Source of the DNA: Candidatus Latescibacterota bacterium
Lineage (GTDB): Bacteria; Latescibacterota; UBA2968; UBA8231
Direction: 5' to 3'
Assembly: GCA_965204725.1 (NCBI GenBank)
Contig: OZ242005.1
Location: 1,472,001-1,536,000 of the forward strand
DNA: 64,000 nucleotides
Of the stretch, positions 1-30,491 are shown one piece after another. The position numbers were made by a program, and so were the translations under genes. Every line of letters starts with the position of its first letter. Position 1 is the stretch's first letter. Under the pieces are notes generated by a model that was not told where the DNA came from, made no database searches, and saw nothing but the letters and a program-made list of their open reading frames with translations.

Positions 1-1443
1 CTTTCCTAGCCAAAAGATATGCGCCCCGGTCTCGACCTCGGTCCACCCCATCGCACGCGGGATATTGCGGTGCTTTCCCAACTTTTCTGGGGCGGCGGTC
101 CGATCCGCAAACCAAGTGAGGTCTCTGTATTCGTTGCTGTAAACCCTGCCCTCAATGCGATTGTTCCGAAGGTAATTCAGGGTCTCGGAATGTTGCCAAC
201 GGGCGGCGTGGTGAAAATGAGCACGGAATCCGATAGCATAAGCTGTGGCGGTAAGACGGAGGTTTTTTTGCGCAGAGAAGCCGATGTGGGTGAGAGCCCC
301 CAGCACGACGAGGGACGCCAACCCGTAGCGGACGGCCACCATCCGGCCCGAAGCCTTGATCGACAGGGACCGATCCAGCAGCAACGCCGCCACCAACAGC
401 AGCGGCACGTATATCGGCATCAGGTAGCGGCTGTCGATGCCCTGCCTAACCGTAAAGGGCACGGTGGCGACCATGAATGCGAGGTAGATCCCGGTGAACG
501 CCCCGAATGGGAGAGCCGGCCCCAAGGCGTCTGGGTCCGGCCGACGACTGGTGCGCAGAATGACCTCGGCGCTGGCGAGGACGACCGCGGCGACCGCCAG
601 CCACAGCAGATATGCAAACCCGTCTGGCGTGTGCCGGGGGACGAGCCATTCGTGGAACACCTCGACGATCTGGCGCAGCCCATCGGATAGGGACTGCCCC
701 GTAGGTTCTGTTCTGTGCCCTGCTGCCCGGGTCAGGTGCCCGGTGGCCGCCCAATTCCGCACCAAGACCGCCAGCAAGGGCAGGGACGAGACCGCGCCAA
801 AGACGAGAGTCTGCCTTAGCCGGGCGCGGGGCAACAGCAGCAGAAGGACGCCGGTGCCGATTAGCACCACGCCCGGATAGCGGGTTATCGCGGCCAGCCC
901 GGTAAAAATCGCCGCCCACCACAGGGGCGCGGCCGTCCTTTGGTTTAGGAAGGACGCCAACTGCATCAAGGCGAGGAGCGTAAACAGGAAGAAGAGGGTC
1001 TCGGTCTGGAGGGAGGACGCCCAATAGCTCAAGGGCAGGGAGACCGCGATGATCGCGGTGGCGGCCAGCGTCAGCCTCTGCGACCTAAGATGCGAGCGCA
1101 GCCAGCACCCGGCGGCGAGGATGGTCAGCCCGAAGGCCGCGGCGTGGACCCACCGAGTCGTCGCCAGCGGATCGATGCCGACCCAACTGCTGGCCGCCAG
1201 CAACAGGGGGATCAAGGGCGGCCACATCGTCAGCGGTTCGCCCTTGAAATCCCGCCAGCCCTCTCCGGCGAGGAAGTTTAGGGCCGTAGAAAGGTAAATG
1301 ACGGAGTCTGTGCCGACCGCGACGCCGTAGGTGGCGGTGCGGACGAGGATGTGGGCGGTGCCCAGCCCGGCGATAAGGGCGATGACAAGCAGGGTGGGGC
1401 GGTCGCGCCAGAATTGGGCGAGCCACTCGAACAAGGAATTCAT
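1..1443 (-). CDS. Array copy 1, GT-C-like membrane protein (3' end beyond window)
   Basis: Not in the ORF track because it runs off the window edge. Translated by hand: ATG at 1443, MNSLFEWLAQFWRDRPTLLVIALIAGLGTAHILVRTATYGVAVGTDSVIYLST..., and the same frame reads WTEVETGAHIFWLGK at position 1. Confidence 0.85.
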   Translation of the reverse strand, partial: MNSLFEWLAQFWRDRPTLLVIALIAGLGTAHILVRTATYGVAVGTDSVIYLSTALNFLAGEGWRDFKGEPLTMWPPLIPLLLAASSWVGIDPLATTRWVHAAAFGLTILAAGCWLRSHLRSQRLTLAATAIIAVSLPLSYWASSLQTETLFFLFTLLALMQLASFLNQRTAAPLWWAAIFTGLAAITRYPGVVLIGTGVLLLLLPRARLRQTLVFGAVSSLPLLAVLVRNWAATGHLTRAAGHRTEPTGQSLSDGLRQIVEVFHEWLVPRHTPDGFAYLLWLAVAAVVLASAEVILRTSRRPDPDALGPALPFGAFTGIYLAFMVATVPFTVRQGIDSRYLMPIYVPLLLVAALLLDRSLSIKASGRMVAVRYGLASLVVLGALTHIGFSAQKNLRLTATAYAIGFRAHFHHAARWQHSETLNYLRNNRIEGRVYSNEYRDLTWFADRTAAPEKLGKHRNIPRAMGWTEVETGAHIFWLGK

Positions 1444-1456
1444 AGGATGGCCTGTA

Positions 1457-3445: not shown

Positions 3446-3473
3446 TTACCTCAGCCTCCTTTTTGGGGTAACA

Positions 3474-5432
3474 TCACCGGCTGGCCGAAAACTCCGCTTC
3501 CCATAAGGTACGGTCCTCTTCAGAAATCCACTGGCCGGTATAGATGCGGCGAATGGCGTAGGGGGGGAGTCGGATGATTGCCATACACTGGTTGTCGACC
3601 CGCTCGCCGCGCCAGTAGAAATAGAAGTCGAGATTGTCCGAATCGTACTGTTGGCGGTCGGCTCGCAGGTCGGCTGAGTTGGTGGGGACGACGTGCAAGA
3701 TGAACTTTGCCTGCACATCCTCGGGAGCGCACGGCTCTTTGAGATAGGTCAGCTTGCGTCCGGTGCGGTACACGTTCCAGCCGGCGCGGACGACTTGCTC
3801 GTCGGCCTGTTGGATGAGTTGCTCCGCGTAGCGTTGTTTGCGGGCGCGATGCTTTTTTGCATCGAAGGGTTCGACCGCTGTGCGGCGGAGTACGAGGCCG
3901 TCGGCCAGTTCAGCCACGATTTCCACGCCGGACAGGACGCGGAGGTCCGTGTCGTCGTGGGTGCGAAACGCTCGATTATAGAATCGATCAAACCAAACGA
4001 TATGCGCTCCGGCCTCCATGTTGGACCACCGCATCTCCCCGGGGATACTTCGGTGCTTGCCCGGGTCAGCGGCTCGCTTGGCAAACCACGCAAGCTCTCT
4101 GTTGTTGCTGTAAATCCTGCTGTCGATATGGTTGTCCCGCAGATAGTTCAGGGTTTCGGACTGTTGCCAATAGGCGGTGTTGTACATCCAGTCTTTTTCG
4201 TATCCAGCGATGTATGCTTTGGCGGTGATACGGAGGTTTTTTCGCGCTGAGAAGCCGACGTGGGCGAGGGTGGTCAGCACGACGAGGGATACCAGCCCGT
4301 AGCGGACAGCTCCCATCCAGCCCGTCGCCTTGAAGGACAGGAATCGGTCCAGCAAGAACACGGTCGTCAACAGCAGCGGCACGTATATCGGCAGCAGGTA
4401 GCGGCTATCGACGCCCTGCCTAACCGTGAAGGGCACGACGACGATGAGGAATGCGAGGTAGAGCACGGTGAACGCCCCGAAAGGGAGAACCGGCCCCAAC
4501 CCAAAGGCTGGCGGTGCGGCCTCTGGGTCCGACCGACGACCGGCGCGCAGGATTACCGCGGCACTGGCGAGGACGACCGCGGCGACCGCCAGCCCTAACA
4601 GATACGCAAACCCGTCCGGCGCATTCGGGGGGACGATGCTTTCACGGAACACCTCGACGGTCTGGCGCAGCCCAGCGGCTAGGGACTGCCCCGAGGCGTC
4701 TGTTCTGTGCCCTGTCGCCCGGGTCAGGTCCCCGGTGGCCGCCCAATTCCGCACCAATACCGCCAGCAAGGGCACGGACGAGACCGCGCCAAAGACGAGG
4801 ATATACCTTAGCCGAGCGAGGGGCAGCAGTAGCAGGACGGCGGCGGCGATCAGCACCACGCCCGGATAGCGGGTTATCGCGGCCAGCGCGGTGAAAACCG
4901 CCGCCCACCACAAAGGCGAGGCCGTCCGCCGGCTGAGGAAGGATGCCAACTGGATCAAGGCGAGGAGCGTCAACAGGACGAAGAGGAGCTCGGCCTTGAA
5001 ATGGGACCCCCAATGGCTCAAGGACAGGGAGGCCGCGATGGGCGCGGTGGCGACTAGCACCAGCCACCGCGCCTGGAGATGCGAGCGAAGCCAACACCCG
5101 GCAGCGAGGATGGTCAGCCCAAAGGACGCGGCGTTGATCCACCGACCCGTGGCTACTGGATCGATGCCGACCCAACCGCCGGCCGCCAGCAACAGGGGGA
5201 ACAAGGGCGGCCATAATATCAGTGGGCTGCCCGTGAAATGCTGCCAGCCCTCTCCGGCGAGGAAGTTTGTGGCTGTAGAAAGGAAAAGGACGGAGTCCGT
5301 GGTGACGGCCGCGCCGTAGGTGGCGGTGCGGGCGAGGATGTGGGCGGTGCCCAGCCCGGCGATAAAGACGATGAGCAGCGCGAAGGGGTCGCGCCCGAGC
5401 CGGACGATCTTCTCAAATGCGGAGTGCTTCAT
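3474..5432 (-). CDS. Array copy 3
   Basis: 652-aa ORF; C-terminal half nearly identical to copy 2. Confidence 0.85.
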   Translation of the reverse strand: MKHSAFEKIVRLGRDPFALLIVFIAGLGTAHILARTATYGAAVTTDSVLFLSTATNFLAGEGWQHFTGSPLILWPPLFPLLLAAGGWVGIDPVATGRWINAASFGLTILAAGCWLRSHLQARWLVLVATAPIAASLSLSHWGSHFKAELLFVLLTLLALIQLASFLSRRTASPLWWAAVFTALAAITRYPGVVLIAAAVLLLLPLARLRYILVFGAVSSVPLLAVLVRNWAATGDLTRATGHRTDASGQSLAAGLRQTVEVFRESIVPPNAPDGFAYLLGLAVAAVVLASAAVILRAGRRSDPEAAPPAFGLGPVLPFGAFTVLYLAFLIVVVPFTVRQGVDSRYLLPIYVPLLLTTVFLLDRFLSFKATGWMGAVRYGLVSLVVLTTLAHVGFSARKNLRITAKAYIAGYEKDWMYNTAYWQQSETLNYLRDNHIDSRIYSNNRELAWFAKRAADPGKHRSIPGEMRWSNMEAGAHIVWFDRFYNRAFRTHDDTDLRVLSGVEIVAELADGLVLRRTAVEPFDAKKHRARKQRYAEQLIQQADEQVVRAGWNVYRTGRKLTYLKEPCAPEDVQAKFILHVVPTNSADLRADRQQYDSDNLDFYFYWRGERVDNQCMAIIRLPPYAIRRIYTGQWISEEDRTLWEAEFSASR

Positions 5433-5456
5433 TTCAAGTCATGTAGGATTGCTATA

Positions 5457-7463: not shown

Positions 7464-7514
7464 TTACGTCGGCATTCTTTTGCGAGTTTCCAACGGACGT
7501 TCGGGCGTCCGGCA

Positions 7515-9413
7515 TCACCGGCCCCCCGAAAACTCCGCTTCCCAGAGGGTGCGGTTCTCTGAGGAAATCCACTGGCCGATATGGATGCGGCTGATGGCGT
7601 AAGCGGGGAGCGGGACGAGCGCGATACATTGGTCGGCTACCCGCTCGCCGTGCCAGTCGAAATGGAAGTCGAGATTTTCAGAACCGTATCGTTTGCGGTG
7701 GGCTGGCAGGTTCATCGGGTCAGTGGGGACGAGGTGCAAGACGAACTTCGCCTGTATGTCCGCAGGGGCGCACGGCTCTTTGCGGTAGATCAGCTTGCGT
7801 TTCGTGCGGTACACGCCCCAGCCGGCGCGAACCACTCGCTCGCTCGCCTGTTGGATGAGTTGCTGCACATAGCGTTGTTTGCGGGCATGATGCCTTTTCT
7901 CATCGAAGGGTTCGGTTGCCGTGCGGCGGAGGACGAGGCCGTCGGCCAGTTCGGCTACGGTTTCCACGCCGGGCAGGACGCGGAGGTCTGTGTCGTCGTA
8001 GCCGAGAAAAGATCGCTGAGAGCCTCTATCAAACCAAACGATATGCACTCCAGCCTCGATCTCGGGCCACCGCAGCCTACGCGAGAGGTTTCGGTACTTG
8101 CCCGGGGCGGCCCTATCCGCAAGCCAAGCAAGTGCTCTGTAGTTGGTGTAAATCGTGCCCTCGATATGATTGTCTCGCAGGTAGTTCAGAATCTTGGAGT
8201 GTTGCCAACGGGCGATGTTGTGCGTCCAGTCTTGTTCGTATCCAGTTCGCCATGCTTGGGCGGTAAGAATGAGGTTTTTTCGCGCCGAGAAGCCGACGTG
8301 GGCGAGGGTGGCCAGCAAGACGAGGGCCGCGAGACCGTAGCGGATGGCCGCCATCCGGCCCGCCGCCTCAATGGATAGGAATTGGTCCAGCAAGAACACG
8401 GCCGTCAACAGCAGCGGCACGTATATCGGCAGCAGGTAGCGGCTGTCGATGCCCTGATAAACCGTGAGGGGCGCGACCGCGACCATGAATACGAGGTAGG
8501 TCAAGGCGAATCCCCCGAAAGGGAGCGCTGGCCCTAAGCGGACATATACCGGCGCGGCCTCTGGGGCGGCGCGGAGGACGACCACCACGCCAGCGAGGAC
8601 GACCGCGGCGACGGCCAGCCCCAGCAGATACGCCAACCCGTCCGGCGCGTTGGGGGGGACGACCCACGTGCGGAACACCTCGATGGCTTGGCCCAGCCCA
8701 GCGGATAGGGACTGCCCCGAGGGATAGCGGTCCCCTGTGGCTTGAGTCAGGCTCCCGATGGCCGCCCAATTCCGCGCCAATACCGCTAGCAAGGGCAGGG
8801 ACGAGATCGCGCCAAAGACGAGGGTGTGTTTAGGCCGGGCAAGAGGCCACAGGATGAGGACGCCGGCGGCGATTAGAGCCACGCCCGGATAGCGGGTCAG
8901 GGCGGCCAGCGCGGTGAAAACCGCCGCCCACAACAGGGGGGGCCACACCGTCCGCCGGTTGAGGAAGGACGCCAACTGGATCAAGGCGAGGAGCGGGAAT
9001 AGGACGAAGAGGGGCTCGGTGATGTGGTAGGACGCGAAATGGGTGAGGGGCAGGGAAGCCGCGAGGGTCGCGGTAGCGGCCAGTGCCAGCAGCCGCGACC
9101 GGAGATTCGAGCGCAGCCAGCACCCGGCGGCGAGGATGGTCAGCCCGAAGGCGGTGGCGTTGATCCACCGACCCGCCTCTAGCGGATCGACGCCGACCCA
9201 AGCGAGGGCCGCTAACAGCAGGGGGAACAAGGGCGGCCATCCTGTCAGCGGCCTACCCGTGAAATATCGCCAGCCTTCTCCCTCGAGGAAGTTCAGGGCC
9301 GTGGACATGAAAACGATGGAGTCCGAGTTGAGCACTGCGCCGTAGGTGGCGGTGCGGACGAGGATGTGCGCGGTGCCCAGCCCGGCGAGGACGACGATGG
9401 TAAGAACAATCAT
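7515..9413 (-). CDS. Array copy 5
   Basis: ORF 7515-9545; start trimmed to ATG 9413 (MIVLTIVVLAGLG) by alignment with paralogs. Confidence 0.8.
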   Translation of the reverse strand: MIVLTIVVLAGLGTAHILVRTATYGAVLNSDSIVFMSTALNFLEGEGWRYFTGRPLTGWPPLFPLLLAALAWVGVDPLEAGRWINATAFGLTILAAGCWLRSNLRSRLLALAATATLAASLPLTHFASYHITEPLFVLFPLLALIQLASFLNRRTVWPPLLWAAVFTALAALTRYPGVALIAAGVLILWPLARPKHTLVFGAISSLPLLAVLARNWAAIGSLTQATGDRYPSGQSLSAGLGQAIEVFRTWVVPPNAPDGLAYLLGLAVAAVVLAGVVVVLRAAPEAAPVYVRLGPALPFGGFALTYLVFMVAVAPLTVYQGIDSRYLLPIYVPLLLTAVFLLDQFLSIEAAGRMAAIRYGLAALVLLATLAHVGFSARKNLILTAQAWRTGYEQDWTHNIARWQHSKILNYLRDNHIEGTIYTNYRALAWLADRAAPGKYRNLSRRLRWPEIEAGVHIVWFDRGSQRSFLGYDDTDLRVLPGVETVAELADGLVLRRTATEPFDEKRHHARKQRYVQQLIQQASERVVRAGWGVYRTKRKLIYRKEPCAPADIQAKFVLHLVPTDPMNLPAHRKRYGSENLDFHFDWHGERVADQCIALVPLPAYAISRIHIGQWISSENRTLWEAEFSGGR

Positions 9414-9430
9414 TTGCGTCGGTGTCCTTA

Positions 9431-11365
9431 TCACCGGCCCGCCGGAAACTCCGCTTCCCATAAGGTGCGGTCCTCTGCGGAAATCCACTGGCCGATATAG
9501 ATGCGGTCGATGGCGTAGTCGGGGAGCGGGGCGATCACCATACATCGGTCGTCGAACCGCTTGCCGTACCAGTCGAAATGGAAGTCGAGGTTATCGGAAT
9601 CGTACTGCTTGCGGTCGGGCGGCAGGTTCGCTGGGTCGGCGGGGACGACGTGTAGAACGAACTTCGCCTGTATGTCCGCAGGATCGCACGGTTCTTTGAG
9701 GTAAATCAGCTTGCGTCCGGTGCGGTACACGTTCCAGCCGGCGCGAACCACTCGCTCGCTCGCCTGTTCGATGAGTTGGTTCACGTAGCGTTGTTTCCGG
9801 GCGAGATGTCTGTCTGGATCGAAGGGTGCGTACGCCGTGCGGCGGAGGACGAGGCCGTCGGCCAGTTCAGCCACGGTTTCCACGCCGGGCAGGACGCGGA
9901 GGTCGAGGTCGTCGCAGTCGGGATAAGATTGCTTGTAGAACGTATAGAACCTATCAAACCAAACGATATGCGCCCCGGCCTCGATCCACCGCATTTTGTT
10001 GCGCTGGATATTTCGGTGCTTTCCTGGGACCGCGGCCCGATTCACAAACCAAGCAAGTGGTATGTGGCTGCTGTAAATCCTGCTCTCGATATGGTTGTCC
10101 CGCAGGTAGTTCAGCGTCTCGGACTGTTGCCAATAGGCGACGTTGTACGTCCCGTCTCCGTACCCGGCTCGCCATGCTTGGGCGGTACGACGGAGGTTTT
10201 CGTACGCCGAGCAGCCGACGTGGGCGAGGGTGGCCAGCCCGACGAGGGACACCAGCCCGTAGCGGACGGCCACCATCCGGCCGGCCGCGGCGATGGATAG
10301 GAACCGATCGAGCAGCAACGCCGCCTCCAACAGCAGCGGCACGTATATCGGCAGCAGGTAGCGGCTGTCAATGCCCTGATAAACCGTGAGGGGCACGACC
10401 GCGACCATGAATACGAGGTAAGCTACGGAAAACGCCTCGAATGGGAGCGCCGGATCCAACCCGAAGGACCGGGGCGCGGCCTCTGGGTCAGGCTGGCGAT
10501 AGCGAAGGACGACCGTGGCACCGGCGAGGACGACCGCGGCGACGGCCAGCCCCAGCAGATACGCCAACCCATCCGGCGCGTTGGGGGGGACGATCCACGC
10601 GCGGAAGACATCAACGGCTTGGCCCAGCCCATCGAATAGGGGTTGCCCCGAAGGCTCTCTGTTCCCTGTCGCTCGGGTCAGGTCCCCGGTGACCGCCCAA
10701 TTGTGCGTCAACACCGCCAGCAAGGGCACGGACGAGATCGCGCCAAAGATGAGGGTCTGCCTTAGCCGGGCGGTGGGCAGCAGCACGAGGACGCCAGTGC
10801 CAATCAGTGCCACGCCCGGCCAGCGGGTCAGGGCGGCCAGTGCGGTGAAAACCGCCGCCCACCACAGGGGCGCGGTCGTCCGCCGGTTGAGGAAGGCCGC
10901 CAACTGAATCAAGGCGAGGAGCGTGAGCAGGACGAAGAGGATTTCGGTTTCGAGGAAGGCCGCCCAATGGCTCAAGGGCAGCGCGGCCGGGATGGTCGCA
11001 GTAGCCGCCAGCACCAGCCAGCGCGACCGGAGATGCGAGCGCAGCCAGCACCCGGCGGCGAGGATGGTCAGCCCGAAGGCGGTGGCGTTGATCAACCGAC
11101 CTGCTTCCAGCGGATCGACGCCGATCCAACCGCTGGCCGCCAGCAGCAGGGGGAACAAGGGCGGCCATCCCACCATCGGGCCGCCCGAGAAAAACCGCCA
11201 GCCCTCTCCCGCGAGAAAGTTTATGGCCGTAGAAAGGAAAGCTGTGCCGCCTGGGCCGACCGCGGCGCCGTAGGTGGCGGTGCGGACGAGGATGTGGGCG
11301 GTGCCCAGCCCGGCGATGCAGGCGATGAGCAGGGTGGTGCGGTCGCGCCAGAACCGGGCGATCAC
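9431..11365 (-). CDS. Array copy 6
   Basis: Probable GTG start at 11365 overlapping the TGA of copy 7 (GTGA). Confidence 0.8.
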   Translation of the reverse strand: MIARFWRDRTTLLIACIAGLGTAHILVRTATYGAAVGPGGTAFLSTAINFLAGEGWRFFSGGPMVGWPPLFPLLLAASGWIGVDPLEAGRLINATAFGLTILAAGCWLRSHLRSRWLVLAATATIPAALPLSHWAAFLETEILFVLLTLLALIQLAAFLNRRTTAPLWWAAVFTALAALTRWPGVALIGTGVLVLLPTARLRQTLIFGAISSVPLLAVLTHNWAVTGDLTRATGNREPSGQPLFDGLGQAVDVFRAWIVPPNAPDGLAYLLGLAVAAVVLAGATVVLRYRQPDPEAAPRSFGLDPALPFEAFSVAYLVFMVAVVPLTVYQGIDSRYLLPIYVPLLLEAALLLDRFLSIAAAGRMVAVRYGLVSLVGLATLAHVGCSAYENLRRTAQAWRAGYGDGTYNVAYWQQSETLNYLRDNHIESRIYSSHIPLAWFVNRAAVPGKHRNIQRNKMRWIEAGAHIVWFDRFYTFYKQSYPDCDDLDLRVLPGVETVAELADGLVLRRTAYAPFDPDRHLARKQRYVNQLIEQASERVVRAGWNVYRTGRKLIYLKEPCDPADIQAKFVLHVVPADPANLPPDRKQYDSDNLDFHFDWYGKRFDDRCMVIAPLPDYAIDRIYIGQWISAEDRTLWEAEFPAGR

Positions 11366-18286: not shown

Positions 18287-20238
18287 CGGCTGGCCGGAAA
18301 CTCTGCTTCCCATAAGGTGCGGTTCTCTGCGGAAATCCACTGGCCGATATGGATGCGGCCGATGGCGTAGTCGGGGAGTTGGGCGATAGCGATACATTGG
18401 TCGCCGCGCCGGAAGCCGATCCACTCGAAATAGAAGTCGAGATTTTCGGAATCGTACTGTTGGTGATGGATTGGCAGGTCGGCCGGGTCGGCTGGGACGA
18501 CGTGCAAGACGAACTTGGCCTGCGTGTCCGCCGGGGCACACGGTGCTTTGCGGTAGATCAGCTTGCGTCCGGTGCGGTACACGGTCCAGCCGGCGTGGAC
18601 CACTTGTTCGCTGGCCTGTTGGATGAGTTGCTCCACATAGCGTTGTCTCTGGGCGCGATGCCTCGCCGCATCGAAGGGTTCGTACGCCGTGCGGCGGAGT
18701 ACAGCACCATCGGCCAGTTCGGCCACGGTTTCCACGCCAGATAGGACGCGGATGTCCACGCCATCGCAGTCGAGAGAAGATCGATAACCCCTCTCAAACC
18801 AAACGATATGCGCCCCGGCCTCGATCTGGGTCCACCGCATCCTGTTCAAGATTTCTTGGTACTTGCTTGGGGCCGCGGTCCGATTCGCAAACCAAGCAAG
18901 GTCTCTGGTGTTGCTATAAATCCGGCCCTCTATGCGGTTGTCCCGCAGGTAGGACAAGAGCTTGGAATGTTGCCAGCGGGCGGTGTTGAACATCCAGTTT
19001 TCTTCGTATCCGACTCTCCACGCTTGGGCGGTAAGACGGAGGTTTTCTCGCGCCGAGAAGCCGATATGGGCGAGGATGGTCAGCACGGCGAGGGCCGCCA
19101 CAACGTAGCGGCCGGCCGCCATCCAGCCCGCCGCCTCGATGGACAGGAGCCGGTCCAGCAAGAACACCCCGGCCACCAGCAACGGCACGTACATCGGCAG
19201 CAGGTAACGGACGGGGAACGCAACGGGGATCACGAGCGGCACGATGGCGACGATGAGGACGAGGTAGGCTACGGCGAACACCCCGAATGGGAGGGCCGGC
19301 CCCAACCCGAAGGTCTGCCCATCCATGCCTAAACTGCGACCCGACCAAACGACGACAGCCCCCGCTGCCAGAACGACCAGCCCGGCCGCCACCGCTATGA
19401 GATAACCAAATCCGTCCGGCGCGTTGGGGGGAATCATCCAATCCCGGAATACATCCGCCGCTCGGCTCAGCCCATCGGACAGGGACTGCCCCGATGCTTT
19501 TCTCCGCCCGGTCAGGGTCCCGGAGACCGCCCAGTTGTACGTCAGCACCCCCGCGAGGGGAATGGATGAGATAGCCCCATAAGCGATGGCGTGCTTTAAC
19601 CGGGCGGCCAGCGGCGGGGCGCGACGCACCAGCAGCATGAGGAGTCCGGTGCCGATGAGCACCACGCCCGCATAGCGGGTCAGCGCGGCCAAGGCGGTGA
19701 AAACCGCCGCCCACCACAGGGGCGCGTCTGTCTTGCGGTTGAGGAAGGTCGCCAACTGGATCAAGGCGAGGAGCGTCAACAGGACGAAGAGGGAATCGCT
19801 CATGAGGTGGGACGCCCAACTGCTCAGGGGCAGGGAGGCGGCGAGGGTCGCGGTGGCGGCCAGCACCAATAGCCGCGACCGGAGATTGGTGCGCAGCCAG
19901 CACCCGGCGGCGAGGATGGTCAGCCCAAAGGCGGTGGCGTTGATCAACCGCCCCGCTTCCAGCGGCTCGATGCCGACCCAACCGAAGGCCGCCAGCAGCA
20001 GGGGGAACAAGGGCGGCCATCTCACCAGCGGTTTGCCCGCGAGATCACGCCAGCCCTCTCCCGCGAAGAAGTTTAGGGCCGTAGAGAGGAAAGAGATGGA
20101 GTCCGTGGTGACGGCCGCGCCGTAGGTGGCGGTGCGGACGAGGATATGGGCGGTGCCCAGTCCGGCGAGGACGACGAGGAGCAGGGTGAAAGGATCGCGC
20201 CCGAACCGGGCGATCCACTTGATGGCGGAGTGATTCAT
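18283..20238 (-). CDS. Array copy 10
   Basis: Start trimmed to ATG 20238 (MNHSAIKW) by alignment. Confidence 0.82.
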   Translation of the reverse strand: MNHSAIKWIARFGRDPFTLLLVVLAGLGTAHILVRTATYGAAVTTDSISFLSTALNFFAGEGWRDLAGKPLVRWPPLFPLLLAAFGWVGIEPLEAGRLINATAFGLTILAAGCWLRTNLRSRLLVLAATATLAASLPLSSWASHLMSDSLFVLLTLLALIQLATFLNRKTDAPLWWAAVFTALAALTRYAGVVLIGTGLLMLLVRRAPPLAARLKHAIAYGAISSIPLAGVLTYNWAVSGTLTGRRKASGQSLSDGLSRAADVFRDWMIPPNAPDGFGYLIAVAAGLVVLAAGAVVVWSGRSLGMDGQTFGLGPALPFGVFAVAYLVLIVAIVPLVIPVAFPVRYLLPMYVPLLVAGVFLLDRLLSIEAAGWMAAGRYVVAALAVLTILAHIGFSARENLRLTAQAWRVGYEENWMFNTARWQHSKLLSYLRDNRIEGRIYSNTRDLAWFANRTAAPSKYQEILNRMRWTQIEAGAHIVWFERGYRSSLDCDGVDIRVLSGVETVAELADGAVLRRTAYEPFDAARHRAQRQRYVEQLIQQASEQVVHAGWTVYRTGRKLIYRKAPCAPADTQAKFVLHVVPADPADLPIHHQQYDSENLDFYFEWIGFRRGDQCIAIAQLPDYAIGRIHIGQWISAENRTLWEAEFPASR

Positions 20239-20275
20239 CTTGGACAGGGTAATATACAAATTAGGGCGTCCTATA

Positions 20276-22213
20276 TCACCGGCCGGCCGACAACTCCGCT
20301 TCCCAAAGGGTGCGGTCCTCTTCGGCAATCCACTGGCCGATATGGATGCGGTTGATGGCGTAGCTGGGGAGTCGGACGATTGCGATACACTGGTCGCCGA
20401 GCCGCTCGCCGATCCAGTCGAAGTAGAAGTCGAGATTATCCGAATCGTACTGTTGGCGGCCGGGTGACAGGTCGGCCGGATCGACGGGGACGACGTGTAA
20501 GACGAACTTCGCCTGTACGTCCGCGGGGACGCACGGCCCTTTGCGGTAGATCAACCTGCGTCCGTTACGGTACACGCTCCAGCCGGCGCGGACCACTTGC
20601 TCGTCAGCCTGTTGGATGAGTTGGTCAACATAGCGTTGTTTCCGGGCGCGATGCCTTTTCACATCGAAGGATTCAGACGCCGTGCGGCGGAACACGACGC
20701 CATCGGCTAGTTCGGCCACGATTTCTACGCCGGGCAGGACCCGGAGGTCCAAGCCGCCGCGGTTGGAATAAGATCGCTCATAGTCCCTCTCAAACCAAAC
20801 GATATGCGCCCCGACCTCGATTTCGGCCCACCGCCTCTTGCTCGGGATTCTTTGGTGCTTTCCCGGGTCGGCGGTCCGATCCGCAAACCAAGCAAGGTAT
20901 CTGCGGTTGCTGTAAATCCGGCTCGCAATGGGGTTGTCCCGGAGGTACGTCAGGGTCTCGGATTGTTGCCAGTGGACGGTGTTGAACATCCAGTCTTCTT
21001 TGTACCCGGCGACATAAGCGTGGGTGGTAAGATGGAGGTTTCTTCGCGTCGAGAAGCCGATGTGGGTGAGGGATGCCAGCACGACGAGGGAGGCCACAAC
21101 GCAGCGGATGGCCACCATCCGGCCCGTAGCCTTGATCGAGAGGAACCGATCCAGTAAGAACGCGGCCGTCAACAGCAGCGGCACGTATATCGGCAGCAGG
21201 TAGCGGCTGTCGATACCCTGAGTAACCGTGAAGGGCACGACCGCGACCATGAATGCGATGTAGCCCACGGTAAACGCCCCGAATGGGAGTGCCGGCCCCC
21301 CAACCCGAAGGGATAGCGGCGCGGCCCTCTGGGTCCGGCTTGCGACCGCGCAGGTGGCCGCCGCGCTGGCGAGGACGACCGCGGCGACCGCCAGCCCCAG
21401 CAGATACGCAAGTCCATCCGGCGTTTGCGGGGGGACGATCCACTCGCGGACTACCTCGACGGTCTGGTGCAGCCCAGCGGATAAGGACTGCCTCAAAGGC
21501 TTTGTTCGGTGTCCTGTCGCTGCGGTCAGGTGCCCGGTGACCGCCCAGTTGCGCGCCAATACCGCCAGCAGGGGCACAGACGAGACCGCGCCAAAGACGA
21601 GGGGCGCCTGCCTTTGCCGGGCGAGGGGCAGCAGCACGAGGACGCCGGTGCCGATTAGGGCCACGCCCGGATAGCGGGTTATCGCGGCCAGTGCGGTGAA
21701 AACCGCCGCCAGCAGCAGGGGCGTCCTCCCACCGCGATGGAGAAAGGCCGCCAGTTGGATCAAGGCGAGGAGCGTCAACAGGACGAAGAGGGAATCGGTC
21801 ATGAAGTGGGACGCCCAATAGCTCAAGGGCAGGGAGGCCGCGAGGGTCGTGGTCGCGGCCAGCACCAACAGCCGCGACCGGAGATGCGAGCGCAGATAGC
21901 AGCCGGCGGCGAGGATGGTCAGCCCAAAGGCGGTGGCGTTGATCAACCGCCCCGCTTCCAGCGGCTCGATGCCGACCCAACCGAAGGCGGCCAGCAGCAG
22001 GGGGAACAAGGGCGGCCAAATCACCATCGGGTTGCCCGCGAAATCCCGCAGGCCCTCTCCCGCGAGGAAGTTTAGGGCCGTCGAAAGAAGACGAATGGAG
22101 TCTGTGCCGACCGCGGTGCCGTAGGTAGCGGTGCGGGCGAGGATGTTCGCGGTGCCCAGCCCGGCGAGGACGACGATGAGCAGGGTGATCCACTTGATGG
22201 CGGAACACTTCAT
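20276..22213 (-). CDS. Array copy 11
   Basis: ATG 22213 (MKCSAIKW) overlaps the TGA of copy 12 (ATGA). Confidence 0.82.
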   Translation of the reverse strand: MKCSAIKWITLLIVVLAGLGTANILARTATYGTAVGTDSIRLLSTALNFLAGEGLRDFAGNPMVIWPPLFPLLLAAFGWVGIEPLEAGRLINATAFGLTILAAGCYLRSHLRSRLLVLAATTTLAASLPLSYWASHFMTDSLFVLLTLLALIQLAAFLHRGGRTPLLLAAVFTALAAITRYPGVALIGTGVLVLLPLARQRQAPLVFGAVSSVPLLAVLARNWAVTGHLTAATGHRTKPLRQSLSAGLHQTVEVVREWIVPPQTPDGLAYLLGLAVAAVVLASAAATCAVASRTQRAAPLSLRVGGPALPFGAFTVGYIAFMVAVVPFTVTQGIDSRYLLPIYVPLLLTAAFLLDRFLSIKATGRMVAIRCVVASLVVLASLTHIGFSTRRNLHLTTHAYVAGYKEDWMFNTVHWQQSETLTYLRDNPIASRIYSNRRYLAWFADRTADPGKHQRIPSKRRWAEIEVGAHIVWFERDYERSYSNRGGLDLRVLPGVEIVAELADGVVFRRTASESFDVKRHRARKQRYVDQLIQQADEQVVRAGWSVYRNGRRLIYRKGPCVPADVQAKFVLHVVPVDPADLSPGRQQYDSDNLDFYFDWIGERLGDQCIAIVRLPSYAINRIHIGQWIAEEDRTLWEAELSAGR

Positions 22214-24192
22214 CTTGGCGGAAACTCCGCTTCCCAAAGGGTGCGGTCCTCTTCGGCAATCCACTGGCCGATATGGATGCGGTCGATGGCGTAGCTGGGG
22301 AGTCGGACGATTGCGATGCACTGGTCGCCGAGGCGGAAGCCGAGCCAGTCGAAATAGAAGTCGAGATTATCCGAATCGTACTGTTGGCGGTGGACTGGCA
22401 GGTCGGCCGGATCGGCCGGGACGAGGTGCAAAATGAACTTCGCCTGTATGTCCGCGGGGACGCACGGCTCTTTGCGGTAGATCAGTGTGCGTCCCGTGCG
22501 GTACACGTTCCAACCGGCGCGGACCACTTGCTCGTCGGCCTGTTGGATGAGTTGGTCAACGTAGCGTTGTTTCCGAGCGTGATGCCTTTTCTTATCCAAG
22601 GGTTCGTACGCTGTGCGGCGGAGGACGAGGCCGTCGGCCAGTTCGGCCACGGTTTCCATGCCGGGCAGCAGACGGAGGTCCAAGCCGCTGCGGGAGAAAT
22701 GAGTTCGATCATAGACCCTCTCAAACCGAACGATATGCGCCCCGGCTTCGATTTCGGTCCACCGCCTCTTGCCCGGGATTTTCCTGCCTAGGATTTGTTG
22801 GTGTTTTCCCGGAGCCGCGGTCCGCTCCGCAAACCAAGCAGAGTATCTGTCGTTGGTGTAAATCCGGCCCGCAATGGGGTTGTCCCGGAGGTACGTCAGG
22901 GTCGCGGAATGTTGCGAACGGGCGGTGTTGAACATCCAGTCTTCTTCGTACCCGACGACATAAGCGCGGGCAGTAAGACGGAGGTTTTCGTGCGCCGAGC
23001 AGCATAAGTGGGCGAGGGTGGCCAGCAAGACGAGGGCCGCCACAGCGTAGCGGACAGCCGCCATCCGGCCCGTAGCCTCGATGGACAGGAACCGATCTAG
23101 CAGGAACACGGCCGTCAACAGCAGCGGCACGTATATCGGCAGCAAGTAACGGACGGGGAACTCAACGGGGACCACGAGCGGCACGATGACCACCGTGAAT
23201 ACGAGGTAGATCGCGGCGAACCCCCCGAATGGGAGTGCCGGCCCCAACCCGAAGGATGGCGACTTGCCGCCCATGCCTAAGCCGCGACCAGCCAGAACGA
23301 CGACCGCCCCCGCTGCCAGAACAACCAGCCCGGTCGCTATCCACAGGAGATACGCCAACCCGTCCGGCGCGTTCGGAGGAATCACCCACCCCCGGAATAC
23401 ATCCGCCACTCGGCTCAGCGAATCGGATAGAGACTGCCCCGAGAGCTCTTTTCTGTACCCTGCTGCCAAGGTCAGGTCCCCGGTGACCGCCCAGTTGTGC
23501 GCCAATACCGCCAGCAAGGGCACGGACGAGATCGCGCCAAAGACGAGGGTCTGCCTTCGCCGAGCGAGGGGCAGCAGGATGAGGACGCCGGTGCCGACCA
23601 GCACCACGCCCGAATAGCGGGTTATTGCGGCCAGCGCGGTGAAAACCGCCGCCCACCACAGGGGCGCGGCCGTCCGCTGGCTGAGGAAGGCCGCCAACTG
23701 GATCAAGGCGAGGAGCGTAAACAAGACGAAAAGGGCGTCGGTCATGAAGTGGGACGCCCAACGGCTCAAGGGCAGGGAGGCCGCGAGGGTCGCGGTGGCG
23801 GCCAGCGTCAGCCACTGCGACCGGAGATTCGAGCGCAACCAGCCCCCAGCGGCGAGGATGGTCAGCCCGAAGGTGGTGGCGTTGATCAGCCGCCCCGCCT
23901 CCAGCGGATCGATGCCGACCCAACCGAGAGCCGCCAGCAGCAGGGGGAACAAGGGCGGCCATTCTACCGTTGAGTTGCCTTTGAAATCCCGCCAGCCCTC
24001 TCCGGCGAGGAAGTTCAGGGCCGTAGAAAGGAAAGCTATGGAGTCCTGAGTGACCGCGGCACCGTAGGTGGCGGTGCGGACGAGGACGTGTGCGGTGCCT
24101 AGTCCGGCGAGGACGATGATTAGCAGGGTGAAAGGATCGCGCCCGAACCGGGTGATCCACTCGGGGGCGGAGTGCTTCAGCAAATTCCACAT
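22210..24192 (-). CDS. Array copy 12
   Basis: Start near ATG 24192 (MWNLLKHSAPEW); a nearby TTG is an alternative. Confidence 0.8.
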   Translation of the reverse strand: MWNLLKHSAPEWITRFGRDPFTLLIIVLAGLGTAHVLVRTATYGAAVTQDSIAFLSTALNFLAGEGWRDFKGNSTVEWPPLFPLLLAALGWVGIDPLEAGRLINATTFGLTILAAGGWLRSNLRSQWLTLAATATLAASLPLSRWASHFMTDALFVLFTLLALIQLAAFLSQRTAAPLWWAAVFTALAAITRYSGVVLVGTGVLILLPLARRRQTLVFGAISSVPLLAVLAHNWAVTGDLTLAAGYRKELSGQSLSDSLSRVADVFRGWVIPPNAPDGLAYLLWIATGLVVLAAGAVVVLAGRGLGMGGKSPSFGLGPALPFGGFAAIYLVFTVVIVPLVVPVEFPVRYLLPIYVPLLLTAVFLLDRFLSIEATGRMAAVRYAVAALVLLATLAHLCCSAHENLRLTARAYVVGYEEDWMFNTARSQHSATLTYLRDNPIAGRIYTNDRYSAWFAERTAAPGKHQQILGRKIPGKRRWTEIEAGAHIVRFERVYDRTHFSRSGLDLRLLPGMETVAELADGLVLRRTAYEPLDKKRHHARKQRYVDQLIQQADEQVVRAGWNVYRTGRTLIYRKEPCVPADIQAKFILHLVPADPADLPVHRQQYDSDNLDFYFDWLGFRLGDQCIAIVRLPSYAIDRIHIGQWIAEEDRTLWEAEFPPR

Positions 24193-24206
24193 GGAGTTTT
24201 GGGTAT

Positions 24207-24302
24207 GAGATACTTCGCTTCGCTCAGTATGACAAGGGCTGGGGCATGAAGTCCCCGTCTGTGTGTCATGCTGAGCGCAGCGTAGCGCAGTCGAAGCATC
24301 TC
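24207..24302. repeat. REP-like inverted repeat pair between copies 12 and 13
   Basis: GAGATACTTCGCTTCGCTCAGTATGACA ... TGTCATGCTGAGCGCAGCGTAGCGCAGTCGAAGCATCTC; resembles the GTCATxCTGAGCGxAGCGAAG extragenic repeat type. Confidence 0.7.
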
Positions 24303-24334
24303 TACATGCTTGCAAGTCATTTAGGACGGCTATA

Positions 24335-26293
24335 TCACCGGCTGGCCGGCAACTCCGCTTCCCAGACGGTGCGGTCCTCTTCGGCAATCCACTGGCCGAC
24401 ATAGATGCGGTCAATGGCGTAGGCGGGGAGCGGGATGATTATCGTACACTGGTCGCCGAGATAGAAGCCGTGCTGGTGGAAATAGAAGTCGAGATTGTCA
24501 GAATCGTACTGTTGGCGGCGGACTGGCAGGTCGGCGGGGTCGGTGGGGACGACGTGCAGAACGAACTTCGCCTGCACATCCGCGGGGCCGCACGGCTTTT
24601 TGAAGTAGAGCAGTTTGCGTCCCGTGCGATACACGTTCCAGCCAGCGCGAGCTACTCGGTCGCTGGCCTGTTGGATGAGTTGGTTCATGTAGCGTTGTTT
24701 GCGGGCGCGATGCTTGTCTGCATTGAAGGGTTCAGTTGCCGTGCGGCGGAGGACGAGGCCGTCGGCCAGTTCGGCCACGATTTCCATGCCGGGCAGGACG
24801 CGGAGGTCGAGGTCGTCGTGGCCGAGATAACCGCGGATAAAGCCCTTCTCAAGCCAAACGATATGCGCCCCGGCCTCAATCTCGGTCCACCGCATCTTGC
24901 GCGGGAGATTTAGGTGCTTTTTGGGAATAGCAGTCCGATCCGCAAACCAAACAAGGGGTCTGTAGTTGCTGTAAATCCTGCCCTCTATGCGGTTGTCCCG
25001 CAGGTAGTTCAGGGTCTCGGAATGTTGCCAAAAGGCGGCGTTGTACATCCAGTCTTGTTCGGCGACATAAGCCTTGGTAGTAAGACGGAGGTTCCTGTGT
25101 ACGGAGAAGCCGACGTGGGTGAGAGTGCCCAGCACGACGAGGGCCGCCACAACGTAGCGGGCGGCCACCATCCGGCCCGCCGCCTCGATAGACAGGAACC
25201 GATCCAGCAGGAACCCCGCCGCCAACAGCAGCGGCACGTATATCGGCAGTAGGTAGCGGCTGTCGATTGTCTGATGAACTGTGAAGGGCACGACGGCGAT
25301 GATGAATACGGAGTAGATCACGGCGAACCCCCCGAAGGGGAGAGCCGGCCCCAAGCGGAAAGAGGCCGGTGCGGCCTCTGAGTCCGGCTGACGACGACCA
25401 AGGACTACTACGGTGCTGGCGAGGACGACCGCTACGACCGCCAGCCCCAGCAGATACGCCAATCCATCCGGCGCGTTTGGGGGGACGACCCACTCGTGGA
25501 ACACCTCGACAGTCTGGCGCAGCCCGGCGGATAGGGACTGCCCCGTCGGCTCTAGCTCTGGTCTGTTGCCTGTTGCCCGGGTCAGGTGCCCGGTGGCCGC
25601 CCAGTTGTGCGCCAATACCGCCAGCAGGGGCACAGACGAGATCGCGCCAAAGACGACGGTGTGCTTCCACCGGGCGAGGGGCAGCAGTAGCAGGACGCCG
25701 GTGCCGATCAGAGCCACGCCCGGATAGCGGGTTATCGCGGCCAGTGCGGTGAAAACCGCGCCCAGCAGCAAGGGGGTCCTCCCGCCGCGATGGAGGAAGG
25801 ACGCCAACTGGATCAAGGCGAGGAGCGTCAACAGGATGAAGAGGGAATCGGTCATAAGGTGGGACGCCGAATGGCTCAAGGGCCGGGAGGCCGCGACGAT
25901 CGCGGTGGCGGCCAGCGCCAGCCCCTGCGACCGGAGATTGGAGTGCAACCAGCACCCGGCGACGAGGATGGTCAGTCCAAAGGCCGCGGCGTTGATCCAC
26001 CGACCGGCCTCCAGCGGATCGATGCCGACCCAACTGCTGGCCGCCAGCAACAGGGGGAACAAGGGCGGCCATAACGTCAGCGGCCTACCCGCGAAATCCC
26101 GCCAACCCTCGCCCGCGAGGAAGTTCAGGACCGTAGAAAGGAAATATGTGGCGTCCACGGTGATCGCCGCGCCGTAGGCCGCGGTGCGGACGAGGATGTG
26201 CGCGGTGCTCAGCCCGGCGAGGACGACGATGAGCAGGGTGAAGGGGTCTCGATAGAACCGGACGAGCCACTTGATGGCGGAGTGCTTCAGCAA
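24335..26293 (-). CDS. Array copy 13
   Basis: TTG start at 26293 with AGGAGG 7 nt upstream (cctcct at 26301-26306). Confidence 0.82.
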   Translation of the reverse strand: MLKHSAIKWLVRFYRDPFTLLIVVLAGLSTAHILVRTAAYGAAITVDATYFLSTVLNFLAGEGWRDFAGRPLTLWPPLFPLLLAASSWVGIDPLEAGRWINAAAFGLTILVAGCWLHSNLRSQGLALAATAIVAASRPLSHSASHLMTDSLFILLTLLALIQLASFLHRGGRTPLLLGAVFTALAAITRYPGVALIGTGVLLLLPLARWKHTVVFGAISSVPLLAVLAHNWAATGHLTRATGNRPELEPTGQSLSAGLRQTVEVFHEWVVPPNAPDGLAYLLGLAVVAVVLASTVVVLGRRQPDSEAAPASFRLGPALPFGGFAVIYSVFIIAVVPFTVHQTIDSRYLLPIYVPLLLAAGFLLDRFLSIEAAGRMVAARYVVAALVVLGTLTHVGFSVHRNLRLTTKAYVAEQDWMYNAAFWQHSETLNYLRDNRIEGRIYSNYRPLVWFADRTAIPKKHLNLPRKMRWTEIEAGAHIVWLEKGFIRGYLGHDDLDLRVLPGMEIVAELADGLVLRRTATEPFNADKHRARKQRYMNQLIQQASDRVARAGWNVYRTGRKLLYFKKPCGPADVQAKFVLHVVPTDPADLPVRRQQYDSDNLDFYFHQHGFYLGDQCTIIIPLPAYAIDRIYVGQWIAEEDRTVWEAELPASR

Positions 26294-26309
26294 ATTGGGG
26301 CCTCCTGTG

Positions 26310-28283: not shown

Positions 28284-28295
28284 AAGCGTCCGGTA

Positions 28296-30260
28296 TTACT
28301 GGCTCGGGGAAAACTCCGCTTCCCAGAGGGTGCGGTTCCCGGCGGCAATCCACTGGCCGACCCGGATGCGGCCGATGGCGTAGGCGGGGAGGCGGACGAT
28401 CATCATACATTGGTTGCCGACCCGCTCGCCGCGCTCGCCGAAATAGAAGCCGAGGTTGTCATAGCCGTACCGCTCGCGGTGGGCTGGCAGGTCGGCTGGG
28501 TCGGCTGGGATGACGTGCAAGACGAACTTTGCCTGCACGTCCGCGGGGGCACATGGCTCTTTGCGGTAGGTCAGCTTGCGTCCCGTGCGGTACACGCCCC
28601 AGCCGGCGCGGGTTACTTGCTCGTCGGCCTGTTCGATGAGTTGGTTCACGTAGCGTTGTTTGCGGGCGCGATGCCTTTCCGCATCGAATAGTTCGGTAGT
28701 CGTGCGGCGGAACACAACGCCGTCGGCCAGTTCGGCCACAATTTCCACGCCGGGCAGGACGCGGAGATCCGTGTCGTCGTGACCGAGAAAAGATCGATTA
28801 TAGATCGCATCAAACCAAATGATACGCGCCCCGGCCTCAATTTTGGTCCACCGCATCGCCCGCGGGGTATTTTGGTACTTTCCCAACTTTTCCGGGGCGG
28901 CGGTCCGATCCCAAAACCAAGCAAGTTCTCGGCTGTTGGTGTAAATCCTGCCCTCAATAGGGTGGTCCTGGAGGTACTGCAAGGTCTCGGACTGTTGCCA
29001 AGAGGCGGCGTTGTACGTCCCGTGTTCGTACCCGGCTCGCCATGCTTGGGCGGTAAGAATGAGGTTTTTTCCCGCTGAGAAGCCGACGTGGGCGAGGGTG
29101 CCCAGCGCGACGAGGGACGCCACAACGTAGCGGACAGCCACCATCCGGCCCGTAGCCTCAATGGACAGGAACCGATCCAGCAGGAACGCGGCCGTCAACA
29201 GCAGCGGCACGTATATCGGCAGGAGGTAGCGGCTGTCGATACCCTGAGTAACCGTGAAGGGCACGACCACGGTCATGAATGCGATGTAGCCCACGGTGAA
29301 CGCCCCGAATGGGAGTGCCGGCCCCAACCCGAAGGATGGCGGCGCGGCCTCTGGGTCTGGCTGGCGACCGCGCAGGACAGCCGCCGCGCTGATGAGGACG
29401 AGTGCCGCGACCGCCAGCCCCAGCAGGTACGCAAGTCCATCCGGCGTTTTCAGGGGGACGATCCATTCGCGGACCACCTCAACGGTCTGGTACAACCCAG
29501 CGAATAGGGACTGCCTCGAAGGTTCTGTTCGGTGCCCTGTTACTTGGATCAGGTTTCCGGTGACCGCCCAGTTGTGCGCCAATACCGCCAGCAAGGGCAG
29601 GGACGAGACCACGCCAAAGACGAGGGTGTGTTTCCACCGGGCGAGGGGCAGCAGCACGAGGACGCCGGTGCCGATTAGGGCCGCGCCCGGATAGCGGGTC
29701 AGCGCGGCCAGCGCGGTGAAAACCGCTGCCAGCAGCAGGGGCGTCCTCCCACCGCGATGGAGAAAGGCCGCCAATTGGATCGAGGCGAGGAGCGGGAACA
29801 AGACGAAGAGCGGCTCGGCCTTGATGTGGGACGCCCAACGGCTCAAGGGCAGGGAGGCCGCAATGGCCGCGGTGGCGGCCAGCACCAGCCAGCGCGACCG
29901 GAGATTGGAGCGCAGCCAGCCCCCGGCAGCGAGGATGGTCAGCCCAAAGGCGGTGGCGTTGATCCACCGACTCGCGGCCACTGGATCGATGCCGACCCAA
30001 CCGCTGGCCGTTAGCAACAGGGGGAACAAGGGCGGCCATCCCACCATCGGACTGCCCGTGAAATACCGCCAGCCCTCGCCGGCGAGGAAGTTCAGGGCCG
30101 TAGAAAGGAAAACTACGGAATCTACGGTGACCGCGGCGCCGTAGGTGGCAGTGCGGACGAGGATATGGGCGGTGCCTAGCCCGGCGAGGACGACGATGAG
30201 CAGCGCGCAGCGGTCGCGCCCCAACCGGGCGATCCACTCTCTGGCGGAACGCTTCAGCAA
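28296..30260 (-). CDS. Array copy 15 (promoter-proximal)
   Basis: 654-aa ORF, TTG start with GGAGG RBS. Confidence 0.85.
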   Translation of the reverse strand: MLKRSAREWIARLGRDRCALLIVVLAGLGTAHILVRTATYGAAVTVDSVVFLSTALNFLAGEGWRYFTGSPMVGWPPLFPLLLTASGWVGIDPVAASRWINATAFGLTILAAGGWLRSNLRSRWLVLAATAAIAASLPLSRWASHIKAEPLFVLFPLLASIQLAAFLHRGGRTPLLLAAVFTALAALTRYPGAALIGTGVLVLLPLARWKHTLVFGVVSSLPLLAVLAHNWAVTGNLIQVTGHRTEPSRQSLFAGLYQTVEVVREWIVPLKTPDGLAYLLGLAVAALVLISAAAVLRGRQPDPEAAPPSFGLGPALPFGAFTVGYIAFMTVVVPFTVTQGIDSRYLLPIYVPLLLTAAFLLDRFLSIEATGRMVAVRYVVASLVALGTLAHVGFSAGKNLILTAQAWRAGYEHGTYNAASWQQSETLQYLQDHPIEGRIYTNSRELAWFWDRTAAPEKLGKYQNTPRAMRWTKIEAGARIIWFDAIYNRSFLGHDDTDLRVLPGVEIVAELADGVVFRRTTTELFDAERHRARKQRYVNQLIEQADEQVTRAGWGVYRTGRKLTYRKEPCAPADVQAKFVLHVIPADPADLPAHRERYGYDNLGFYFGERGERVGNQCMMIVRLPAYAIGRIRVGQWIAAGNRTLWEAEFSPSQ

Positions 30261-30389: not shown

Positions 30390-30450
30390 GTCCATTGAAT
30401 GGCTGTCGCGTACCAGACGAGGCGCGCTGTCCCGGCCCCGTGCGTCGCGG

Positions 30451-30480: not shown

Positions 30481-30491
30481 CAGAGGTCGCT

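Follow-up and report, generated by a model that had tools for sequence, protein, structure and literature searches.

Signs of diversifying selection at outward-facing codons in a recombining tandem array of GT-C-like membrane glycosyltransferase paralogs from a Latescibacterota bacterium

The window analysed here is a 64,000-nucleotide stretch of a Candidatus Latescibacterota bacterium genome (contig OZ242005.1; G000:C1:1472001-1536000 in our numbering). Its positions 1-30260 are occupied by a tandem array of 15 paralogous genes of about 640-780 codons each, the first of which is truncated by the window start (Table 1). A first-pass annotation, made from the sequence letters, had counted the same 15 copies, and this count was confirmed; all 15 are on the minus strand. 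The array extends about 18 kb leftward past the window edge, to a total of about 25 copies at G000:C1:1453843-1502278. A protein search of the genome gave 84 matches across eight genomic loci; other loci of the family include C1:665991-680766, 1173931-1179939, 1989022-2035958 and 5255780-5260054. By our own scan of open reading frames (ORFs), the genome holds 47 full-length copies, together with fragments and a few copies whose frames are shifted or interrupted by stops, and the paralog family (about 50 copies) makes up roughly 2% of the genome's DNA.

The 15 window copies share 60-83% protein identity, with 178 of 654 columns invariant. Intergenic gaps between neighbouring copies measure 12-51 nt, and a 4-nt start/stop overlap (GTGA or ATGA) is found in six copies, c05-c09 and c11, which makes a polycistronic arrangement likely. 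The overlaps suggest translational coupling along the array, which is probably transcribed as a single unit. Sigma-70-like promoters and intrinsic terminators, searched for in window positions 1-20000, showed no excess over shuffled sequences. The last 115-130 residues or so, a C-terminal subdomain, are doubled in c07-c09 (11362-18286) and in four copies beyond the window's left edge; other organisms have up to 11 repeats of this subdomain.

The identity of the encoded proteins was assessed by profile, sequence and structure searches. Three window copies, c03 included, gave no Pfam match at E<=0.1. In a six-frame search c01 reached 27.0 bits for PMT_2 against a cut-off of 26.1, and the remaining copies stayed under the cut-off; among 41 aligned family members, 14 matched PMT_2 (PF13231) and 10 matched PMT (PF02366) at E<=0.01. 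NCBIfam NF047440 (LA_3751/LA_3752 putative glycosyltransferase) was the sole curated model matching a window copy (c02, residues 82-411, E 5.7e-11); its scores of 41.9 and 16.6 bits lie below the curated cut-off of 200, and it marks a distant relative of the array, not the family to which the array belongs. A sequence search of the PDB with one copy, and then with the family profile, returned chance-level matches only (best E 0.026, RNase H). The AlphaFold model of c03 (predicted local distance difference test, pLDDT, 90.1; predicted template modelling score, pTM, 0.90) was compared with the PDB by Foldseek. The ArnT structures 5f15 and 5ezm came out on top (E 1.2e-7 and 7.9e-7, TMq 0.45-0.50, probability 1.00), followed by ALG9, AglB, STT3, AftB, PglB, Emb and Pmt4. 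In total 46 PDB matches were obtained at E<=0.001, and among the matches listed almost all were GT-C enzymes. Judged by the modelled fold, the proteins belong to the GT-C (PMT/ArnT/TMTC-like) membrane glycosyltransferases, among which they form a branch without annotation. The family comprises 5963 clusters (50% identity) at E<=0.001, with thousands of metagenome relatives, and its ESM Atlas neighbours fall into unnamed clusters, some of them partly with PMT_2 or PMT. The C-terminal domain alone (residues 410-652; all residue numbers are those of c03) was modelled with a pLDDT of 91.5. Against the PDB it gave nothing convincing: the best match was 4ruw (E 7e-4, TMq 0.22), followed by weak beta-sandwich matches (CBM56/Ig-like).

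The membrane topology was deduced from the helices of the c03 model together with the alternation of lysine plus arginine (K+R) density over 36 distant homologues, which gives 11 helices with the N terminus inside and the C terminus outside. The six putative inner segments have K+R densities of 0.20-0.44 and the outer loops 0.02-0.13; the exception is the third extracytoplasmic loop (EL3), five residues long with a density of 0.19, whose sole K/R is the near-invariant Arg188. In this predicted topology EL1 is long (residues 36-97), with helix 77-87 taken as a surface helix, and EL4 (230-272) has a helix inside; the PMT clan is described with this same arrangement. A naive count of the model helices would give 12 and leave the C-terminal domain on the cytoplasmic side. 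This topology was rejected on two grounds: loop 88-97 is K/R-poor and acidic in the 36 homologues, and the C-terminal domain contains a Cys pair that is invariant. In the c03 model, isolated beta-bridges at residues 42, 64, 70 and 144 join EL2 to EL1 or to the C-terminal domain.

Arg344, Cys568, His580, Cys616 and Gly633-Gln634 are shared by all 41 aligned members, and Asp46, Arg35 and Arg188 are kept in at least 90% of them. GT-C enzymes typically carry an acidic residue where the first extracytoplasmic loop begins; here this is Asp46, which is also present in 40 of the 47 genome copies. The Arg before transmembrane helix 10 (TM10) is found as Arg344, its pre-helix position being taken from DSSP of the c03 model. 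For the PMT clan, the available part of the source assigns the acceptor site to EL1, EL2 and EL4 and the donor site to EL1 and EL4, with the catalytic Asp in EL1 and the donor phosphate bound by an EL3 basic residue and the pre-TM10 Arg (PMC7801869). By analogy, Asp46, Arg188 and Arg344 would fit the catalytic and donor-phosphate positions described there.

The relations among the copies were examined by segment. The tree of the whole gene resembles a star, and its internal branches are weakly supported. When the gene is divided into six segments of about 106 codons, every segment favours its own tree, with a summed gain in log-likelihood (lnL) of 230, and in approximately unbiased tests each of the six rejects most of the other segments' trees. 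The copies are therefore recombination mosaics, and segment-specific trees were used throughout the codon analysis.

The first-pass annotation had proposed that variation concentrates in the same short windows in every copy, between transmembrane segments that are nearly invariant. All 22 of its peptide strings that we searched (21 distinct) are present in the translated copies, the 'before' windows having been lengthened by the motif that follows and PSGISL by one residue. Entropy peaks at all seven variable windows, which make up 41 of the 638 analysed columns (6.4%) and have a mean entropy of 1.79 bits versus 0.72 elsewhere; however, they hold just 14.5% of the summed entropy. The description of the transmembrane segments did not stand, as 74 of 202 helix columns are invariant and mean pairwise identity there is 75.5%. 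Residues 296-312, in a putative cytoplasmic loop, are among the most variable stretches and are missing from the annotation's list. Per-column entropy in the 15 copies is autocorrelated at lags 1-3 (0 of 2000 shuffles were as high), and the profile correlates with that of the other 32 full-length genome copies (r = 0.77). As to the proposal that the variable loops line the acceptor/donor-binding face, four of the windows would map to EL1, EL2 and EL5 by the predicted topology and the loop roles of the clan, and the other three would lie in the extracytoplasmic C-terminal domain. One of the four precedes WPPL, a motif whose counterpart in PMTs is HPPL. In the most variable codons of all copies (for example c03 5286-5288 and 5013-5015) the last base is T or A, both of them rare at third positions in this DNA (T3 11%, A3 10%), and we tentatively read these as retained ancestral bases.

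Selection was assessed at the codon level. Nei-Gojobori estimates for the 15 copies gave a median dS of 0.35, dN of 0.21 and dN/dS of 0.60, and with this dS the silent sites are unsaturated. An MG94-type codon model (F3x4, fitted kappa, IQ-TREE segment trees, 21x21 grid of alpha and beta) was used to obtain a FUBAR-like mixture and a FEL-like test at each site. With all 47 copies and six segment trees, admitting a class with beta>alpha improved the fit by 2ΔlnL = 122, and this class received 27% of the weight. Positive sites numbered 35, 14 and 4 at p<0.05, 0.01 and 0.001, respectively; at a false discovery rate (FDR)<0.05, there were 18 positive versus 170 negative sites. Four null simulations without positive selection, one on the true trees and three on 12 trees analysed with 6 re-inferred ones, yielded 2ΔlnL of only 2.1-9.4, and 7-12, 0-2 and 0 positive sites at the same three thresholds. 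The leading positive sites are 49 (p = 7e-10), 397, 489, 140, 462 and 73, and the next are 358, 468, 558, 564, 488, 85, 24 and 407. The top sites hold with 12 segment trees, and sites 49, 73, 140, 397 and 488 are still significant in the 15 window copies alone. Site 49, three residues past Asp46 and in an ungapped stretch, carries 13 residue types in the 47 copies.

The distribution of the signal over the protein was then compared among compartments. The ratio of amino-acid to silent rates (omega) is lowest in helices (0.35) and cytoplasmic loops (0.43) and higher in the C-terminal domain (0.65) and the outer loops (0.81). Of the membrane-domain sites, 15 of the 144 in outer loops are positive, versus 7 of the 251 elsewhere (Fisher p = 0.0024, with the sites classed by the predicted topology). 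Mean entropy is higher in the cytoplasmic loops than in any of the other three compartments, and their silent rate is high, yet only one of their 49 sites is positive; variability alone therefore does not yield the signal. The same comparison bears on the idea that the outer loops are variable because they are a local mutational hot spot or escape gene conversion: silent change should then rise as well, whereas alpha has its lowest value there (0.8 versus 1.0 in helices).

The diversifying selection suggested by the first-pass annotation was thus supported in part, and at the level of single sites it largely held. Nominally significant sites with dN>dS occur in six of the seven variable windows; there is none in the post-LSHW window, although the His of LSHW itself, His140, is positive. 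Site-wise estimation on recombination-partitioned trees, of the kind that it had called for, does find dN>dS sites, but the windows taken as blocks are near neutral to mildly positive. In the 15 copies the windows jointly have an omega of 1.8 (likelihood-ratio test, LRT, 9.6).

On this evidence we think it rather probable that the locus is a tandem array of recombining GT-C paralogs in which a minority of outward-facing codons has been diversified by selection on what each enzyme binds. Selection would most likely act on each paralog's binding of the acceptor or possibly of the donor sugar. Several points weigh against this interpretation. The codon model is our own implementation with fixed segment trees and breakpoints, not HyPhy. 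The null simulations imply that about a third (~10) of the 35 nominal sites are due to chance and the rest are not, and only a handful of sites are individually strong. Sites 413, 468, 488 and 489 lie in gapped columns. In the 47 copies the variable windows as blocks have omegas of 0.83-1.9, jointly 1.5 (LRT 6.1); as the windows had been picked for their variability, these values are subject to ascertainment bias. Global omega, at 0.54 in the 15 copies and 0.52 in the 47, also fits partial relaxation of constraint, as do the several broken copies found at several loci. Asp46 is absent in 7 of the 47 genome copies, including c02, c06 and c08 in the window, and such copies may be inactive or act differently.

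Most of these points can be put together as an account by relaxed constraint only, in which redundant duplicates drift near neutrality in their loops and the apparent dN>dS sites are the extreme of a neutral distribution that recombination and alignment error have inflated. The gene-wide and window-level omegas, the loss of Asp46, the broken copies and the indels in some of the variable windows all speak for it. However, a model restricted to beta<=alpha, in which neutral sites are allowed, is worse by the full 2ΔlnL of 122, whereas data simulated under it, in three of the four cases with mis-specified recombination, gave values below 10; the extreme p value at site 49 arises in an ungapped stretch; and the cytoplasmic loops, the most entropic compartment, keep a low omega and next to no positive sites. 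The 170 sites under significant purifying selection and the 47 copies with intact frames also argue against it. As a complete explanation we hold relaxed constraint to be unlikely, though it is the strongest of the competing accounts, and relaxation probably still contributes alongside selection.

A mechanism that writes the variable windows directly, by a diversity-generating retroelement, local hypermutation or programmed exchange of short cassettes, was also considered. At site 49 the codons are mostly NNT, with T kept at the third position in 42 of 46, which is like the outcome at AAY template codons, and the copies are recombination mosaics. However, the variable sites span about 1.5 kb rather than one variable repeat, the other top sites keep A or mixed third bases, and the shared segments are long, with no short shared cassettes seen. 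No match to the RVT_1 reverse transcriptase was found in the genome (94% complete), and no separate search for a template repeat was made. The lack of a reverse transcriptase match, the dispersed variable sites and the mixed third bases make a retroelement diversifier unlikely, and this candidate was rejected; we regard a targeted mechanism of any of these kinds as highly improbable. The token ALTERNATIVES heads a group of the alternatives: the retroelement diversifier, the hot spot or escape from conversion, and pure relaxation.

Selection might also act on the loops as targets, for example through evasion of a toxin acting in the periplasm, a phage protein or a partner protein. Positive sites remote from the catalytic Asp, in extracytoplasmic regions and the C-terminal domain, would suit such a cause; the strongest sites, in contrast, flank Asp46 or precede WPPL or Arg344, which are substrate contacts in solved relatives according to the part of PMC7801869 available. 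No candidate binder is known, and we consider this explanation improbable.

Taking selection on binding as the preferred explanation, we propose the following scheme. By analogy with solved relatives, each enzyme would take a sugar borne on polyprenyl phosphate at the outer face of the inner membrane and attach it to an envelope glycan or to a secreted protein. The predicted protein plan has 11 helices with the N terminus inside, Asp46 in EL1, Arg188 in EL3 and Arg344 in EL5, followed by an extracytoplasmic C-terminal domain of about 240 residues with the conserved Cys pair. The copies exchange sequence by gene conversion, and in a minority of codons amino-acid changes have been fixed faster than silent ones; these fast codons appear to cluster in EL1, EL2, EL5, the stalk helix past the last TM helix and the C-terminal domain. 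Diversified binding would thereby give the cell a repertoire of envelope-glycosylating activities. A bolder extension, which we offer as a tentative possibility, is that selection keeps the loops diverse and gene conversion keeps the scaffold in a standing repertoire of about 50 periplasmic-face glycosyltransferases, producing a combinatorial sugar pattern on the envelope or on secreted proteins. If true, the repertoire would be a counterpart, at the level of enzymes, to antigenic variation, with phages or animal-host recognition as its driver.

The copies were also compared with orthologs in databases. Many database proteins are one-to-one with single copies of this genome, the best match reaching 84-98% identity and the second-best copy falling short of it by at least 10 points, and the paralogs are therefore older than these strain or species splits. 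In 52 ortholog pairs, compared at the protein level, 7.3% of positions differ overall, with 13.6% at positive sites versus 6.9% at other sites, a difference of about twofold; the pairs come from 19 copies and are non-independent, which also weakens this comparison as support for selection. Site 73 differs in 21 of 52 pairs and site 49 in 11 of 50. The positive positions thus keep changing between close relatives, a pattern that at the protein level does not separate selection from low constraint. At the DNA level, a search of genome contigs and metagenome contigs with c03 gave no match, and a search of metagenome contigs with a 10-copy alignment gave one locus, 32% identical. Among same-genus species, 3 of 24 had any match at E<=1e-20, and in a second genus of the same class 2 of 12 species had matches (10 and 19). 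This scattered occurrence indicates that the expansions are patchy and lineage-specific. Parts of the array are present in public runs labelled sponge or marine metagenomes, and no RNA run was among the public runs listed with array parts. The contigs of four public runs over window positions 1-20000 were short and often fitted two places.

The surroundings of the array were inspected for related functions. On its left flank lie a sugar-nucleotide epimerase/dehydratase and a GHMP kinase. The divergent genes to its right (Table 1) are candidates for further extracytoplasmic glycan or protein modification, and the YfhO-like and TMEM260-like ones belong to GT-C-type families too. No flippase or polyprenyl-phosphate glycosyltransferase gene adjoins the array, and the sole GtrA-family match in the genome lies at 3.0 Mb, far from it. 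Further along the window, a CBM9-like protein is encoded at 47380-48462, and a plus-strand ORF at 49349-51310 has a CHU_C type IX secretion signal domain and a FlgD-Ig-like domain. Within the array, the insertion at the YSN window of c09 (~16600-16700) resembles a repeat of the adjoining stretch when the alignment is inspected by eye.

Table 1. Array copies, variable windows, conserved residues and neighbouring genes, in window coordinates. Topological assignments are predicted.
Feature	Position	Strand	Remarks
Copy c01, 5' part only	1..1443	minus	gene runs on left of window; full ORF G000:C1:1471482-1473731
Copy c02, 662 aa	1457..3445	minus	Gly at catalytic Asp46 position
Copy c03, 652 aa	3474..5432	minus	reference for all residue numbers; structure modelled
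Copy c04, 668 aa	5457..7463	minus	
Copy c05	7515..9434	minus	likely GTG start; 4-nt overlap with upstream stop
Copy c06	9431..11365	minus	4-nt start/stop overlap; Gly at Asp46 position
Copy c07	11362..13641	minus	last C-terminal subdomain duplicated
Copy c08	13638..15959	minus	C-terminal subdomain duplicated; Asp46 motif gone (2-residue deletion with Ala)
Copy c09	15956..18286	minus	C-terminal subdomain duplicated; 17-residue internal insertion at YSN window
Copy c10	18283..20259	minus	start uncertain
Copy c11	20276..22213	minus	ATGA start/stop overlap
Copy c12	22210..24315	minus	start uncertain
Copy c13	24335..26293	minus	
Copy c14, 657 aa	26310..28283	minus	
Copy c15, 654 aa	28296..30260	minus	first gene of the array
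4-nt start/stop overlaps	9431-9434, 11362-11365, 13638-13641, 15956-15959, 18283-18286, 22210-22213	minus	
AVTTDSVLF, c03 residues 42-50	5283..5309	minus	EL1 around Asp46; positive sites 44, 45, 49
QHFTGSPLIL, c03 residues 64-73, pre-WPPL	5214..5243	minus	end of EL1, before second EL1 helix; positive site 73
HWGSHFKA, c03 residues 140-147	4992..5015	minus	end of TM3 and EL2; positive site 140; beta-bridge at 144 in model
VRQGVDS, c03 residues 337-343	4404..4424	minus	EL5, directly before Arg344; site 338 p<0.05
GYxxxxYN window, c03 residues 412-417	4182..4199	minus	start of C-terminal domain; site 413 p<0.05; indel-rich columns
YSNxxxL window, c03 residues 444-446	4095..4103	minus	site 445 p<0.05
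WFxxxxxR window, c03 residues 482-489	3966..3989	minus	positive sites 488, 489; some column gaps
Arg188 (TRYPG)	4869..4871	minus	near-invariant; EL3
Arg344 (RYLLP)	4401..4403	minus	directly before TM10
SGNH/AlgX-like, YfhO-like, and TMEM260-like with TPR repeats	within 30399-35835	plus	divergent from array

The array can be set beside several known systems. With the PMT clan (PMT1/2, TMTC1-4, ArnT) it has in common a multi-helix membrane domain, a long first outward loop that bears the catalytic Asp, an Arg in front of TM10, a long helix-containing loop past TM7 and an extracytoplasmic C-terminal domain, as far as the clan is described in the available part of PMC7801869. It differs in its motif, which is Asp-Ser in the array and Asp-Asp/Glu in the clan, in a C-terminal domain that has no convincing structural match, and in the extreme number of its tandem paralogs. 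In Gtr-like three-component systems, according to the accessible portion of PMC11127046, a GT-C enzyme and a polyprenyl-phosphate sugar likewise decorate envelope glycans outside the cytoplasm, and that family diversifies in the target that is modified; unlike these systems, the array lacks adjoining genes for the flippase and the polyprenyl-phosphate glycosyltransferase. Our literature searches, with supplementary files outside their scope, found no paper describing such an array, and a study of sponge Latescibacterota, in the part available, mentions glycosyltransferase only as a carbohydrate-active enzyme (CAZyme) class (PMC12993501).

The array also offers a natural panel of related enzymes, in a family that has no Pfam or functional annotation despite thousands of relatives. 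Residues 44-49, 73, 140 and 338 are candidate specificity determinants, and the panel could serve to learn how GT-C enzymes choose their substrates. GT-C enzymes are usually regarded as conserved housekeeping or single-purpose envelope enzymes; the signs of selection near the catalytic residue, in this genome of an uncultured marine lineage, point to envelope glycosylation as an arena of rapid adaptation. Conceptually, the array resembles multigene families that diversify at their binding loops, being likewise tandem and mosaic with a few exposed positions at which dN>dS; those families are surface antigens or receptors, whereas the array would encode an inner-membrane enzyme. Collectively, these comparisons place the array as an extreme, recombining and partly positively selected tandem family of a known kind of enzyme.

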